35,161 nt of DNA, taken from IMG/VR virus record IMGVR_UViG_2700989521_000009; one strand, 5' to 3'. Positions 6,001 through 18,000 of this stretch are shown in pieces (the stretch's first letter is position 1; each line of letters opens with the position of its first letter). This DNA is from a virus. Taxonomy: Duplodnaviria > Heunggongvirae > Uroviricota > Caudoviricetes. A program made the position numbers.

Positions 6001-9000
6001 ACGGGGAGTAACAGCGTTGAGCGTTATCTGCCGGAGGTGAAGACATTAACCCGTCTGGCTGGCGGACGTTGGGCTGAATTTCATACGGCAAGGCGGGGAT
6101 TTATCCGGCTGGGAAAACGTCTGGGCTTTGAGCGAATGCCGGATGATGAGGATGGCTTCATGGTGTTCAGGATAGCGGTCTGACTGCCACAGTATTCATT
6201 ATCGTGTGTAAACCAATTGCAATTCACATTCTGACCCTGCCCCGGCAGGGTTTTTTGTTATCCAGGGGGGGCCATTATGGGTGGAAGTAAAGGCGGTGGT
6301 GATACCAAAGTAAAACCAACAGCAGCGCAAATAGCACAGGAAGAAGTGGCCTGGAAAGGGTGGCAGGATTACAAAAATATCCTCCGCCCGGCTGAAGATA
6401 ACTTCATGGAAAAGGTCGATGACCTTAACAGTGAGCAGCAGTACGACAATATCGCTGGCACAACAAATCTGGGTTATCAGAAACAGTTTGGTGAAGCGCG
6501 AAGGGAGCTGGCGGGTAATCTTGCTCAGTCCGGTGTTGACCCGTCCAGTGGTCGCTTTAACGCGGTAATGAATGCGAACCAGAGTGATCAGGTAACCGGG
6601 CAGATTGACACAACCACACGGGGGCAGGTATCGCAGGCAGATAAGTATGTTGCCGGGCTACAGGATGTTGCAGCTCTCGGTTCAGGTCAGAAGGCGGATG
6701 CGTTACAGAGTTTTAACTCGCTGGCAGACAGCAGTCTGGCAAAAGCTAAATCGGACGCACAGGCTGCGTTTACGAAACAGCAGGGGCGAGCCTCTCTTGT
6801 TGGCGCTGGTTTGGGTGCGGTAGGTGCATATGCGATGCATAAGGCTGGTGGTAGCGGAGGAAGTGGCGGTGCTAAAACACCTGGCACCGGCGCTAATGCC
6901 ATTCAGCATCAGGCTCAGAACTGGAGACTGTGATTATGGAGTACGGTAAATACGAAACACTTGCAAGATACGGTTATACCGGAGCAGCCCGCCCTCAGGG
7001 GGACTGGCAGGCATCCGCAGCGCTGACCCGCCAGCAATACGACGACTGGCGCACCAGATATTTACCCCGTGTAGCAAGGCTGGCTGACCTTGGCGAGAAC
7101 AACAGCCTGATGAATGCACAGCTTGCCCGGGTGGGCGGCCTTGCCACTTCCAGTCTCCGTACAGCGCAGATGGCGCAGGATAACCAGATGGCGAGATACG
7201 GGGTAAGCCGCCCGGATAATCCCGACAGTAATACGCTGGGGTTACGTAATGCCCTGGCAATTGCTGGTGCGAAAAATGGTATCCGTGAAGCCGAACAGGA
7301 TCGCCAGATGAACATACTGACGGGGGCTTCTGCACCTGCAAGACAACAACTGAGTGTTGGCGGTCAAATGATGACAGCGTAAGGGGGAAGATATGGGGTA
7401 CGGCTTACTGGATATTGCGAATCAGTCACGGCGTGAGGCATTACAGGGAATAAGTGACGCAGACCGACGACGTGAAGAAATTGAGGCTGCGAACAAACAG
7501 ATGGCGGCGCAACAGAAAGCGCAGAACAAGCAGAATATCGGTACGGGCATTGGTACGGGGGCGGCTATTGGCGCATCCGTTGGTGGTCCTGTTGGTGCTG
7601 TTGCTGGTGCAGTAATTGGCGGCATTGCTGGTTCTTTGTTTTAAGGAGTGGTGAATGAGCGGATTTGCACAGGGGTTACTTGCCGGATTCAGCACCGTTG
7701 ACCAGGCAATGACCCGTCGTAAGGAGCTTGGTCTGCGTGAAGCACAGCTTGCCCGGCAACAGAAAAATAACGAGCGCGATTTTGAATTTGCGCAGTCTCA
7801 GTTTGAGCACCGGAAAGAGAATGATCAGCGTACATATGATCTTAATGTCAGGAATGCTGACCGTGAATATGCGCTGAAAGAGAGGGAACACAAAGCAGCG
7901 CAGAATTATCGAAATGCGTCACTGGGTATGGAGCAGCAGCGACTCCAGTTGCAGAAATACAACCAGCGACGGCTTGAGTATAACGATATGCTGGCGCGCG
8001 ATCAGCCTGTGATGGCTGCGCTTGGAAAGGCTGTGGATGCTGGTGATCGGGATGCGGCAATGCGTCTTTACGGGCAGTTGTCAGAGGGTAATCCGCTGAG
8101 GCTGATGGCGAATGATGGCTATGCAGCGAAAGCGGGGCAGGCCGTGAACAACCTGCAGAAAATCTTTGATGATAAGCCGGACAGGGCGATTGCTTCGCTG
8201 AATACCCCGGAAAATCTCGATGTGCTTTCCGGCGTGTTTGCCCCGGAACTACAACAGCGTATTGGCATGCCTGATTCAACCGGGGAAAAGACAATAAAAG
8301 AGGCCAGGATTGGCAGTATCGTACCGGCGCAGCAGGAAGGGTACGTACTTATTGGTCTTGATCTCACATACAGCGATGGCTCCACCGCGCATAAACCTGT
8401 AACAGAATACGGCAGTGCACATCCTGATGATCAAACCGTGCTGGCGATACCCGTTGATAAGGCTGTCGCTCTTGTCAGGGATCGCAGTAAATTCGCGGAA
8501 ATTTCGAAAAATTACGGTTATTTCATGCCGAAGCAGCAGGGACTTTCTCTGAAAGAGCTTCAGAAGGGGGCCAGCAACGTAGCGGCGGAGGCGATCAAGA
8601 ATGGCGGTAATGCTCAGGCTGCGGTGGATGAATATTATGCTGCGACTGGTTCACAACCGCATCAACAGAAAATTCAGCAACAAAAACTTCAGCAACAGGT
8701 TATCAACTGGGCGGGAGATGATCCTGATAAGCTGTCATTTGCCAGAAATGTAGCGGCCCGTCAGCCTGAAATGCTGGAACCTCAGAATCAGAAATTGCTG
8801 GAGAACGGGTATGCGAATTTTCTCCGTATTCAAAAGGCCAGGGGGGAACAGGCCAGAGATGAAAGTGCTTCATCTGCATCTCAGTTTATCCGTGGACTGA
8901 AACAGAATTACGCCCAGTAATTCACGATATTCCATTAATACCATTTCCTGATGCCCGGCCATTGTGCCGGGTTTTTTTATGGAGTCTGTATGGCCTATTC

Positions 9001-15000: not shown

Positions 15001-18000
15001 AATCATGCAGCGTGTGCGTAACAGCGGCAAACAGGCACAGTATGACCGTCTGGCAGGGATTATTGACGATATGCTGGCCCGTCGCCGTGAGATTATCCGT
15101 GAGGCAGGACTGGAAGAGAGCGGCGTGGTGGATGCCTGGCAGAAAGCCTACCGTTACTACGTCCCCCTGAAAGGGCAGGATGTTGACGGTGTGGTGTCAC
15201 TGCCACGTACAGGCAAGGGATTCACCATCGGCGGGCGTGAAAGTAAGCAGGCCATGGGGCGTGCATCCCGCGCACAGTCTCCTTCCACTCAGGCGATACA
15301 GGATTTGAGTGAATCGCTGATCCGCAATCGCAAAAATGAAGTGGGTAACGCCTTCCTGAAACTGGTACAGGATAATCCCGACAAGGATTACTGGCAGGTA
15401 TTCACTGATGACAGACCGGATACCATGCGTGTGATTGCAGAGCGCAAGGACCAGGAAACTGGTGAAACCATTCGCGAAGTTGTCGAGCGTCCGGTGGCGA
15501 TGGCAATGATGGCAGACCGGTACTTCACCACCAAAAAGAACGGCAAAACGTACTACATCAAACTCCATGATCCGCGCCTGATGCGTGCGATGAAGAATAT
15601 GGGACCGGAAACCAGTAACGCAGTAATCCGTACGCTGGGGAAAGTTAACCGCTTCCTGGCAACGGTGAACACGTCGTATAACCCGGAATTCCTGGTCAGT
15701 AACTTCATCCGTGACGTGCAGACAGCGGTGATGAATCTGAAGGCGGAGCAGGGAAGGAGCGACGGCAAACTGAAAGGGCTGGATAACTTATCCGCACTGG
15801 CTGTGGTGAAAGACAGCCGTTCTGCTATGTCAGCCGTATACGCCAGTCTGCGTGGCAAAAACCTCACGGGCAAAGGTGCGCAGTGGCAGAAGGTGTGGAA
15901 AGAGTTTGTTGAGGACGGAGGTAAAACCGGCTGGTTTAACATGGGTGACCTTGAAGGCCAGCAGAAGGAAATGGATCGCCTTGTATCGCTGGCGAAGGGA
16001 GGATGGAAAGGCCAGAGTATCGGTGCATGGAATTCGTTCCTGAACCTGGTCGAGGATGCCAACGGTGCGGTTGAAAACGCACTGCGTCTGTCAGCTTATA
16101 AACACGCCCGTGATGCCGGTTTGTCACGCCAGCAGGCGGCGTCTCTTGCCAAAAACATGACGGTGAACTTTAACCGTCGTGGTGAGCAGGGGGCGCTGAT
16201 GAACTCGCTGTACATGTTCGCCAACGCCAGTATTCAGGGAACGGCAAATCTGGTGAGAACGCTCGGACATCTTAATGGTGAGGGACCTTTACTGGAGCGT
16301 CTTCGCTGGAAGAATCTGAATGTTCCGCAGAAAATCGCGCTTGCCGCTGTGGGAGCGGGTTATCTGCTTGGCTCGCTTAACCGCAGCGTGGCGGGTGAGG
16401 ATGATGACGGGGTTAACTGGTATGACAAAGTACCGTCTCATGTGAAAGAGCGTAACCTCGTCATTATGAAATCGGTGTTCGGGGGCAAGGCCGGAGAGTA
16501 CTGGAGTATTCCTCTGCCTTACGGGTACAACGTTTTCTTCCTGCTTGGTCACACAGCCGAAGGGGTGGCAGCGGGCGACCTGACCGCTTCACGTGCTGCC
16601 GGTAATGTTGTTGGTGGTGTGCTTGGGGCATTCAGTCCTGTGGGCAGTGAAACGTCGGAAACACTGTCCGGGGCATTGCTGAAAAATGCAGCGCCGACCA
16701 TTCTGCGTCCGTTTGCGAACCTTGCCATGAATGAAAACTTCATGGGGGCGCAGATTTACCAGGAGAACATGCCGTTTGGTACACCAAAACCTGACAGCCA
16801 GCTGGGAAGACGTTCAACGCCAGAAGCGTACAAGGCGTTTGCATCCTGGCTGAATGCGTTCTCAGGTGGCAGCCAGTACCGTCCCGGCGCGGTGGATATC
16901 ACACCGGAATCGCTGAAATTCTGGATTGACTATATCTCCGGAGGGACAGGGCGCTTCATTTCCAAAACCACGGATGCGGCGGTGAAATCGCTGAATGGTA
17001 TTGATATACCGGAACAGCAGGTGCCCTTCCTGGGGAAAATTTCGGGGGAGGTGATGCCGTATGCAGACCAGCAGAAGATGTACGACCGGATGACAGAGAT
17101 TGCGCAGTATCACGCAGAGCTGAAGAGTCTGACCGGTGCAGAAAGAACGGCGTTCATTGACGAGAACAACGGAAAATTGTCGATGAACGGGCTTATGCAG
17201 GATACCCGGAAGAGACTGAAGGATTTGCGTAAACAGCGTGATGCCATTTATGCCGACAGTTCTCTCAGTCTGGCGCAGCAGGCGGCGATAGTGAAATCGG
17301 TAGAGCGGGATATGAAGGTTGCCGTGGATCGCTTTAACCGCGAGTACAACAAAAAAGTGGGAGTGGATTAACAGAAATGGCCCCGTACGGAAGTGCGGGG
17401 CTGATTAAGGAATAAACACACATTAACCTGTAATAACCGGAGCTATTAACATATAGTCAGAAAGAGTATTTCATGTGAGACAGAGAGCCGATTTATGTTT
17501 AATGAAGAAAAAGTTGCGCAAATGGCAGCGTATTTGCTGAAAAAGCATGGCGGATCTATGCGTTTCATTAAGCTGATGTATCTCTCTGACCGCAAAGCAA
17601 TGGAGTCTTTAACCGGGAAGGGGAGAGGTTTGAATGCTCCCCCACAATTCCCCGGCATCAAATCTCCATGCAGGTGAACTATTTTACCCCCAGCGGCAAA
17701 TCGCAAAAACAATCAGTGCGATCGAAATGGCAGCCACTACAATTGCAAATGCTTCAGGCTAGGTCATTGGCGTACCTCCTTCGGCGGTTCTGGTAGCGGC
17801 ATCCAGTGGGTTACTTCTTTGAGATGCAGGTCTTCGCCATCACCGTCATCCCAAGTGGGATTGCCATCATTAAACCAGTCGCCATATACGCCGACCTGAG
17901 TGTTGGGGATGCTTGGTGGGTAGTTGTTTTTAAAGTCAGCTGCTAACACATAGTATTGTCGCTCTCCCATTTCTGGCATTCGATCACTACAGCTTATCCA

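Follow-up and report, generated by a model that had tools for sequence, protein, structure and literature searches.

Three bodies of published work describe the closest relatives of the locus reported here, a five-gene cassette at positions 6277–17371 of a 35,161-nucleotide (nt) stretch of caudoviricete DNA (IMG/VR record IMGVR_UViG_2700989521_000009; "the window" denotes this whole stretch). In Sp5, the Shiga toxin 2 (Stx2) phage of Escherichia coli O157:H7 Sakai, Mondal et al. (2016) deleted every unknown gene in frame, among them ORF76–ORF80 (ECs1238–1242), which encode 218, 148, 83, 421 and 2793 amino acids (aa) and form the same block (PMC5155283). Phage phi24B was characterised by cryo-electron microscopy (cryo-EM) together with virion proteomics, and its gp47, a 2811-aa reading frame, proved abundant in virions, invisible in the maps and was proposed to be an ejection protein (Bubenchikov et al. 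2026, preprint, 10.64898/2026.04.10.717836). Polyvalent proteins, as defined by Iyer, Burroughs, Anand, de Souza and Aravind (2017, PMC5512222), combine domains such as LPD5, LPD1, MuF-C/PBECR and LPD38 with a zincin and are encoded among virion genes. Whereas the preliminary description of the window matched the cassette to no characterised family, its products correspond to Sp5 ORF76–80 and phi24B gp47–51, and its largest one belongs with the polyvalent proteins. The evidence assembled below indicates that this Sepvirinae podovirus, of the 933W/phi24B type, probably uses the cassette as an ejection and delivery set that is housed inside the capsid and has swappable effector cargo.

The cassette comprises five co-directional open reading frames (ORFs), located exactly where the preliminary description placed them:

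6277–6933, + strand: 218-aa ORF (phi24B gp51), by ORF call with a Shine-Dalgarno motif
6936–7382, + strand: 148-aa ORF (phi24B gp50), counted from the ATG at 6936 (150 aa if the GTG at 6930 is used)
7393–7644, + strand: 83-aa ORF, by ORF call
7655–8920, + strand: 421-aa ORF (phi24B gp48), by ORF call
8990–17371, + strand: 2793-aa ORF, the giant (Sp5 ORF80/ECs1242, phi24B gp47, POCJ13 gp71), starting at ATG 8990

A Shine-Dalgarno-like motif precedes all five starts. The tight packing claimed for them, with overlapping or 10–30 nt junctions, is seen at the 218/148, 148/83 and 83/421 junctions (2, 10 and 10 nt) but not between the 421-aa and giant genes, which lie 69 nt apart. A GGAG lies 6 nt ahead of the giant start at 8990, and the Sp5 deletion design used the equivalent start rather than an upstream ATG at 8951 (PMC5155283). 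Shigella phage POCJ13 (Sepvirinae, Diegovirus) matches the prophage late region at 100% identity; there the cassette is gp67–gp71 and occupies record positions 46691–57785, again without a difference. At 90% identity or more, it is present in 186 phage records, nearly all from Stx-converting or related Escherichia/Shigella phages, and in 427 of 5426 complete E. coli genomes (~8%), with up to three copies per genome. The phi24B orthologues are 97.7% (218-aa), 95.9% (148-aa), 100% (83-aa), 90.5% (421-aa) and 95.8% (giant) identical to the window. Because of the POCJ13 identity, the wide conservation and the mass spectrometry (MS) peptides obtained for all five phi24B orthologues, these are not chance ORFs. 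The Sp5 and phi24B counterparts are direct orthologues of the same lengths and order with no substantive sequence difference, and the Sp5 deletion phenotypes and the phi24B virion proteome transfer directly to the window.

The published genetics of Sp5 provides the first line of evidence. Phages lacking ORF79 or ORF80 form neither plaques nor lysogens, defects that are rescued by complementation in trans, and contain wild-type levels of DNase-resistant DNA in heads that look normal; deletion of ORF76 severely reduces infectivity, a leaky rather than dead phenotype, while deletion of ORF75, ORF77 or ORF78 leaves the phage without defect (PMC5155283). The ORF79 and ORF80 products thus behave as ejection proteins do, being required for infectivity and not for heads or packaging; ORF76 does so in part, and the dispensable ORF77 and ORF78 do not.

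The second line of evidence is the phi24B proteome. All five cassette products are present in purified virions according to the supplementary MS spreadsheet of the preprint (10.64898/2026.04.10.717836), with the following numbers of peptide-spectrum matches (PSMs):

Giant (gp47): 10,962 total, 746 in the batch sample
421-aa protein ("gp48 Transcription factor?"): 1634 total, 179 in the batch sample
218-aa protein (gp51): 523 total, 82 in the batch sample
148-aa protein (gp50): 129 total, 83 in the batch sample
83-aa orthologue: 13 total, 6 in the batch sample
Portal, for comparison: 2226 total, 101 in the batch sample
Nozzle, for comparison: 702 total, 42 in the batch sample

The proteins modelled in phi24B are only gp57, gp61, gp62, gp64, gp67, gp69, gp72, gp84 and the needle gp56, with no cassette product among them, and the whole tail is made up of portal, two adaptors, nozzle, needle and fibres, cassette proteins having no density in it (10.64898/2026.04.10.717836). 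These literature data on the orthologues place the products in the virion, outside the ordered shell and tail. Moreover, two proteins, described as a "transcription regulation factor" and as a "homolog of a bacteriocin", are dismissed in the preprint as contaminants, by annotation only (10.64898/2026.04.10.717836). These are the 421-aa and 83-aa proteins, and the "transcription factor" label of gp48 goes back to an old GenBank note. Both are genuine virion components rather than contaminants. For the 421-aa orthologue, the PSM number is about that of the portal, the PSMs peak in the gel slice next to that of the major capsid protein; also seen is the Met-cleaved N-terminal peptide 2–21. Peptides of the giant span its whole length at similar counts, and the protein is spread over four analysed gel slices above the portal slice; the supplement gives per-slice counts per protein rather than per peptide, and full-length protein plus fragments is indistinguishable there from a smear.

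Batch-sample PSMs per residue, normalised to the 12-copy portal, yield roughly 20 copies for the giant, 30–50 for each of the 421-, 218- and 148-aa products and a handful for the 83-aa one, with errors of up to about five-fold; applied to the 6-copy nozzle and to a 12-copy adaptor, the calculation gives 6.4 and only 2.5. Because a T=9 head holds 57–63 kb of DNA here compared with 70 kb in N4, a phi24B-type head would leave space for several megadaltons of protein. Joined together, the proteome and the deletions, the latter study not being cited in the preprint, identify the cassette products as proteins inside the virion and show that, once DNA is packaged, infectivity depends on two of them. 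The preliminary description had named absence from virions combined with lack of a deletion phenotype as the outcome that would tell against it, and the literature on the orthologues came out the other way on both.

The giant protein is organised as a chain of domains between conserved ends. In the numbering of the 2793-aa form, its parts are:

Residues 1–150: Gly/Ser/Asp-rich, no family match
Residues ~150–450 (9437–10339, + strand): conserved Ala/Gly-rich N-terminal module, with a Gly-zipper (405–425) at its end
Residues 451–1050 (10340–12139, + strand): interval in which 451–~900 is an acidic Glu/Gln/Pro/Ala-rich low-complexity linker
Residues 1051–1200 (12140–12589, + strand): LPD5 (Pfam PF18799, E 5.7e-45)
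Residues 1182–1437 (12533–13300, + strand): CLCA_X-type zincin metallopeptidase domain, with HEWFHSLD at 1284–1291
Residues 1361–1440: LPD1 (Pfam, E 9.6e-24), the tail of the CLCA_X domain
Residues 1470–1664 (13397–13981, + strand): conserved region with a second HExxH (HEIIH at 1551)
Residues 1750–1837 (14237–14500, + strand): MuF-C domain (Pfam PF18819, E 3.2e-17)
Residues 1879–2793 (14624–17368, + strand): conserved C-terminal module of mainly helical structure plus a single small beta domain
Residues 2476–2681: LPD38 (Pfam, E 3.7e-48), inside the C-terminal module

The N-terminal module aligns with residues 123–492 of a Vibrio phage giant, 367–613 of Gervaise gp28 and 522–645 of BcepIL02 gp70. 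Across residues 451–1050, which have no Pfam match, the net charge per 150 residues runs −12, −8, −5 and then +4 (901–1050). LPD38, LPD5, LPD1 and MuF_C, all belonging to the polyvalent repertoire, score above the Pfam gathering thresholds. LPD5 ranks among the potentially enzymatic LPDs (Iyer 2017, PMC5512222) and is predicted to be enzymatic in the giant. The CLCA_X match (NCBIfam NF041907, E 8e-44) covers model positions 3–245 of 250 (243 of 250 positions) and is domain-level, its 150 bits lying below the 260-bit whole-protein cut-off; CLCA_X proteins are predicted HExxH zincins borne by phages and plasmids, often inside very long proteins (PMC3650047). The region around the second HExxH shares 32% identity with residues 1949–2138 of the Vibrio giant, has only a weak Peptidase_M76 match (E 0.19) and is perhaps no canonical zincin. 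MuF-C corresponds to PBECR, a predicted RNase domain of the barnase/EndoU/colicin type (Iyer 2017, PMC5512222). The name "MuF-C metallopeptidase" used in the 2026 preprint is not retained here, as MuF-C is the RNase-like PBECR and the metallopeptidase is the separate CLCA_X domain. Separately, two patches of the giant, residues 801–900 (nt ~11390–11689; 76% identity) and 1801–1900 (nt ~14390–14689), are only 73–76% identical to phi24B against 94–100% for the rest; one lies in the linker and the other at the boundary between MuF-C and the C-terminal module, and both look like local hypervariable or recombinant stretches.

The C-terminal module extends far beyond the Stx phages. By tblastn, its relatives occur in marine Vibrio phages (41% identity), in a virus recorded on Methanosarcina (29%) and in Burkholderia Bcep22/BcepIL02 and Ralstonia Gervaise-type phages (27%), with weak matches in E. 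coli phage Pondi and Bacillus phage Page; LPD38 stands at the end of all these giants. A profile of the module retrieves 21,316 clusters at 50% identity (E ≤ 1e-3), 9088 of them at E ≤ 1e-30, and every one of the 150 top-scoring proteins (900–5535 aa) has the end of the module no more than ~40 residues from its C-terminus. Against solved structures, Foldseek gives a best E of 0.37 and template modelling (TM) scores of at most 0.15 for the module, and the whole giant searched against PDB sequences returns noise only (E 0.76). The N-terminal module likewise aligns in the Vibrio, Burkholderia and Ralstonia giants, while the middles differ. Specifically, an SLT lytic transglycosylase stands at the front of both BcepIL02 gp70 and Gervaise gp28, which also contain an Eco57I-type methylase and LPD3, gp70 additionally having a helicase C-terminal domain, and metagenomic relatives place methyltransferase, RadC-type or other polyvalent domains before the same C-terminal module (precomputed Pfam accessions).

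The helper genes travel with the giant. Vibrio phage 252E42.2 carries homologues of the 133-, 218-, 148-, 83- and 421-aa proteins and the giant in the same order, and its synteny extends to podoviruses from sea and soil that look lytic and have no lom gene. A scan of IMG/VR with the module profile finds at least 583 encoding stretches; 78 loci were kept, including 15 Stx-like and ~19 intermediate ones (module 38–56% identical), and the order 218-148-83-421-giant is preserved in the Stx-like and intermediate loci wherever upstream DNA suffices. In the most distant contigs, iterated profiles find no helper-gene homologues, and the resemblance is one of position and motif: an ORF of ~140–170 aa, a 330–630 aa protein and a 500–780 aa protein precede the giant. 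The 330–630 aa protein begins MGKSSGGG, MSKGGGGG or MGGSSGGG, ends in Gly-zippers and matches the PHROG "DNA ejection protein".

A broader reading follows the same distribution, and is put forward tentatively, with the balance tilting somewhat away from it. In it, the N-terminal Gly-zipper module and the ~900-aa LPD38 C-terminal module would form a universal delivery chassis that, with its helper cassette, threads swappable enzyme cargo on a megadalton scale through a short tail, a distinct and very widespread type of ejectosome evolutionarily separate from those of T7, P22 and N4. Its many podovirus lineages, seemingly unrelated, would include Sepvirinae, Lessievirus, Gervaisevirus, marine Vibrio phages, Xuquatrovirus, the Gram-positive Pagevirus and the virus labelled as infecting Methanosarcina; its helper cassette would consist of a non-virion factor of ~135–170 aa, a Gly-zipper protein with a Gly-rich N-terminus plus split paralogues, and a protein of ~420–780 aa. 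As a separate observation, Methanosarcina virus MetMV (MK170447.1) encodes at 7584–16592 a 3002-aa protein whose last ~870 residues, LPD38 included, share 29% identity with the C-terminal module of the Stx phages. The alternatives are a module that spans domains of life and a host assignment in need of review.

Among the helpers, the 218-aa protein begins MGGSKGGGD and has a C-terminal Gly-zipper at 172–184; an MS peptide of its phi24B orthologue covers residues 12–27. It is related to the "virion structural protein" encoded upstream of the giants of BcepIL02 and Gervaise, and the family N-termini read MGGSKGGGD here, MGGGD in Vibrio and MGGKGGGD in Ralstonia. Further forms, MSKGGGGG and MGGSSGGG, were noted, and a Met-Gly/Ser-(Gly/Lys/Ser)-rich N-terminus (window 6277–6303) is a recurring feature of the cassette's first virion protein, even between phages that have diverged very far. 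One idea is that this Gly-rich motif serves as an N-terminal modification site; the N-terminal peptides of the family are too short to show in the MS data. The gene upstream in the Bcep and Gervaise phages is a PHROG acyl-CoA N-acyltransferase (GNAT-type), to which neither the 133-aa ORF of the window nor its relatives are similar by Pfam, BLAST or hhalign, and acylation of the Gly-rich N-terminus by a GNAT enzyme encoded beside the 218-aa gene would be an unsupported possibility.

The 148-aa protein is possibly a paralogue of the N-terminal half of the 218-aa protein, as judged from an hhalign match between the two families (residues 17–115 against 23–117, probability 52%, E 1.4e-4), and profile comparison relates the second half of the 218-aa protein weakly to the 83-aa protein. 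Speculatively, redundancy among the three would explain why deletion of ORF77 or ORF78 is silent and that of ORF76 leaky. The 83-aa protein has a C-terminal Gly-zipper segment (50–83; zipper run 50–81) that is hydrophobic over 56–83 and contains nine overlapping GxxxG-type motifs. Its Pfam matches to Gly-zipper_YMGG and Bacteriocin_IIc both fall below the cut-off, the latter (19.7 bits against 27.1) covering the Gly-zipper segment only. The RefSeq label "bacteriocin" has no above-threshold match behind it and is contradicted by the presence of the protein in virions.

The 421-aa protein has a Gly-zipper run at its N-terminus and no Pfam match. Its AlphaFold2 (AF2) model comprises a long N-terminal helix, a small beta domain and a helical C-terminus, and Foldseek finds no PDB fold match for this weak model. 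With zippers in the 83-aa, 218-aa, 421-aa and giant proteins and a 118-residue helix in the 421-aa model, the composition given earlier (Gly-rich proteins, a Gly-zipper membrane protein, a coiled-coil protein and a giant multidomain protein) is borne out.

The genomic setting agrees with a structural role. The neighbouring features upstream and within the cassette are:

616–2319, + strand: 567-aa ORF labelled "internal virion protein / hypothetical", the hexameric tail nozzle (phi24B gp57)
2316–3584, + strand: 422-aa ORF labelled "tail fiber protein", the central needle (phi24B gp56)
3599–3877, + strand: 92-aa ORF, orthologue of phi24B gp55
3883–4500, + strand: 205-aa ORF, orthologue of phi24B gp54
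5376–5394, + strand: terminator-like hairpin with a T-run, after lom
5782–6183, + strand: 133-aa ORF (Sp5 ORF75), just upstream of the cassette and conserved alongside it
6233–6252, + strand: terminator-like hairpin followed by a T-run, directly 5' of the 218-aa gene (consensus scan only)
8953–8972, + strand: terminator-like hairpin GCCCGGC...GCCGGGT followed by T7, between the 421-aa and giant genes

The cassette sits downstream of the nozzle, needle and lom genes and also after a mokW-like gene. The preliminary description had assigned it a moron position between lom and the prophage end; instead, it is the final block of the podovirus structural module and is neither a moron nor lambda-type. 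Beyond the giant gene come ~4.9 kb of minus-strand phage genes (DUF551, Ea22-like, DUF4752, Ant) before the phage/host junction at ~22285, where the POCJ13 record stops and chromosomal genes resembling DMSO-reductase-type (ynf-type) subunits begin. The PHROG and RefSeq labels of the nozzle and needle ORFs are misleading; their Sp5 orthologues, ORF70 and ORF71, are both essential (PMC5155283). The 92-aa and 205-aa ORFs, named "outer membrane protein" and "membrane associated protein" in RefSeq, correspond to gp55/gp54, proposed to be a needle-tip pair that may recognise BamA (10.64898/2026.04.10.717836).

The 133-aa ORF has no Pfam match, and its orthologue was undetected in the phi24B virion proteome. 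A syntenic homologue is present in the Vibrio phage and others in 19 IMG/VR loci, and the ORF is homologous to the ~140–170 aa ORFs preceding the cassette in very distant contigs (hhalign probability 90%, E 1.6e-6). Its product is a candidate non-structural assembly or packaging helper. All three hairpins lie within the late transcription unit; the GC-rich one at 8953–8972 overlaps the alternative in-frame ATG of the giant ORF at 8951. A Q-antiterminated polymerase presumably reads through them, and they could set expression ratios or stabilise mRNA.

In the favoured reading, the cassette proteins are made late and built into the head. Upon receptor engagement and needle release, they would exit through the tail channel before or together with the DNA. 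The Gly-zipper proteins (218-aa, 83-aa and perhaps 148-aa) and the 421-aa protein would insert into and line the cell envelope, and the giant would pass next as a loosely folded chain of domains. Its N-terminal Gly-zipper and ~900-aa C-terminal modules would act as a constant chassis for packaging, anchoring and translocation, and its middle (LPD5, the CLCA_X zincin, the second HExxH region and MuF-C/PBECR) as lineage-specific cargo delivered to the cell. Burkholderia and Ralstonia relatives would use the same chassis for a different cargo, an N-terminal lytic transglycosylase and a DarB-like methylase-helicase. The CLCA_X zincin probably processes the giant polyprotein, as is proposed for the metallopeptidases of polyvalent proteins, which would cleave the chain into functional pieces either inside the head or once injected (Iyer 2017, PMC5512222). 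The preliminary description had offered an internal-core/ejection set and an injected polyvalent effector with helper proteins as alternatives; the evidence fits both, which here are one and the same.

Several points weigh against a capsid-internal ejection role. Ejection itself has never been observed for cassette proteins, and we infer it. The giant lacks SLT, lysozyme or other peptidoglycan hydrolase domains in Pfam scans and has no strongly hydrophobic 19-residue segment; its enzymatic assignments are predictions at the level of hidden Markov models (HMMs) only, and the second HExxH reads HEILAHH in the Vibrio orthologue and is thus not conserved as HExxH. The AF2 model of the 421-aa protein is of low confidence (predicted local distance difference test score, pLDDT, 70; predicted TM score, pTM, 0.39). 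No sequence or fold similarity of the cassette to T7, P22 or N4 ejection proteins was found, the 218-, 148- and 83-aa proteins having been compared only with N4 gp50–52; for the C-terminal module and the 421-aa family, comparison with gp50–52 by phmmer, by BLAST and with profile HMMs returned nothing significant. Classical P22 and T7 ejection-protein mutants give normal-looking tailed particles. In Sp5, by contrast, an anti-tail-fibre (ORF67) antibody failed to bind particles lacking ORF79 or ORF80 (data not shown), and Mondal et al. assigned both genes to tail formation (PMC5155283). This missing fibre label is the main tension, and it keeps a tail-completion role alive, whether as a rival or in addition.

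On the proposal of Mondal et al. (2016), the 421-aa protein and the giant would be tail components or assembly factors, and the giant might drive an energy-requiring step. In favour are the heads of both deletion mutants, which package DNA yet bind no fibre antibody, and a COG1483 AAA+ match reported for ORF80. That match is not reproduced with Pfam or NCBIfam, neither of which finds an AAA+/ATPase family in the giant; the phi24B tail is fully explained by other proteins, with no density left for cassette products; the giant is abundant over its whole length in the finished virion, unlike a transient assembly factor; and the immuno-electron microscopy negatives are not shown. A tail-assembly role on its own is unlikely; the two readings can hold together, as the tail could depend on an internal core for its stable completion. 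A second proposal reduces the giant to an injected DarB-like anti-defence effector and the small proteins to packaging helpers like P1 DarA, Hdf and DdrA, with no structural part in DNA delivery. It draws on the membership of the giant in the polyvalent class, predicted to counter host defences, on a C-terminal module common to giants annotated "DarB-like antirestriction", and on the exchange of cargo domains between lineages. The PHROG "DarB-like" match, however, covers only residues 2351–2681 of that shared module, Pfam and NCBIfam detect no methylase or helicase family in the giant, and the N- and C-terminal modules are conserved whatever the cargo. P1 Dar proteins are dispensable on non-restricting hosts. 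The Sp5 mutants, on the other hand, were induced from and plated on one K-12 strain (PMC5155283); with a single strain serving for both production and plating, loss of anti-restriction alone ought not to kill the phage, and since the mutants die on the strain that produced them, a purely anti-defence role is quite improbable.

The notion of moron or lysogenic-conversion cargo, a bacteriocin/toxin locus or host-benefit genes near the prophage end, takes its appeal from the position after lom and the mokW-like gene, the weak Bacteriocin_IIc and Gly-zipper matches of the 83-aa protein, and the terminator-like hairpins flanking sub-blocks. Against it stand the sub-threshold bacteriocin score, the presence of all products in virions, the two genes essential for infectivity and the synteny of the cassette in podoviruses without lom; it is almost certainly wrong, and in our view the deletion and proteome data have already refuted it. 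The capsid-internal ejection and delivery set thus remains the preferred reading.

The locus is not new, having already been sequenced, deleted and detected proteomically, and its giant falls in a described class. What the accessible literature does not state is the junction of the 2016 genetics with the 2026 proteomics, the standing of the 421-aa and 83-aa proteins as real virion components, and the division of the giant into a constant N/C chassis and a variable middle. The cassette makes up ~18% of the genome in the commonest Shiga-toxin-converting phages, and two of its genes are indispensable for the spread of stx, which makes them a medically relevant point of attack. The mechanistic problem is that of the N4 virion RNA polymerase (vRNAP), namely how a protein of ~300 kDa, of which there are apparently many copies, is kept alongside the DNA and gets through a narrow tail channel. 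The family of giants is far larger than that of N4 (more than 21,000 clusters at 50% identity), with exchangeable effector cargo and a C-terminal module that has no structural precedent.

Compared with known systems, the giant realises what was predicted for polyvalent proteins: packaging, foreseen by Iyer 2017, is shown for the 95.8% identical phi24B orthologue, and the CLCA_X domain is the predicted counterpart of the zincin-like metallopeptidase hub of that class. It departs from merely accessory counter-defence members in being essential. Moreover, LPD38, described in 2017 as a ~190-aa domain with no assigned role, is here the core of a ~900-aa, always C-terminal module paired with an N-terminal module and helpers. 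The P1 DarB type is distinguished by an adenine methylase and a SWI2/SNF2-type helicase, both absent from the giant, and class IIc bacteriocins by a model score above threshold together with a double-glycine leader, whereas the 83-aa protein scores below that threshold. PHROG and Pfam yield no lambda-type late or b-region matches for the cassette, in line with the preliminary description, and the phage is a Sepvirinae podovirus.

The functional class is that of T7 gp14/gp15/gp16 and P22 gp7/gp16/gp20: internal proteins, infectivity-essential, packaging-dispensable and present in tens of copies; the P22 proteins are given 12, 12 and 30 copies (PMC8402733). The cassette differs in the size of its largest protein, three to four times that of the counterpart, in the enzymatic cargo of this protein, and in that the Sp5 mutants reportedly lack fibre labelling. 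T7 gp16 begins with an SLT transglycosylase. Such an N-terminal domain is absent from the Stx-phage giant and present in the BcepIL02 and Gervaise giants. Bcep22/BcepIL02/JC1 (Lessievirus) and Ralstonia Gervaise-type phages share homologous N- and C-terminal modules, the 218-aa homologue, portal, capsid and nozzle with the Stx phages, and in the Bcep22-like phage JC1 the giant, the 218-aa-type "virion structural protein" and two further upstream products are virion-associated by MS; their cargo comprises SLT, Eco57I-type methylase, helicase and LPD3, whereas the Stx-phage giant has LPD5, CLCA_X and MuF-C. The closest working analogue would be the gp50-gp51-gp52 operon of N4 (Schitoviridae), likewise a T=9 podovirus in which a giant encapsidated protein, the vRNAP, is encoded beside smaller ejection proteins; in gp50, ~3500 aa long, the N-terminal domain binds lipid, the core is enzymatic and the large C-terminal domain has a new fold, and the protein is thought by its authors to move like beads on a string (PMC12633501, PMC11445570). 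The Stx-phage giant gave no PDB fold match; unlike N4 gp50, it has no RNA polymerase domain and is accompanied by four helpers instead of two.

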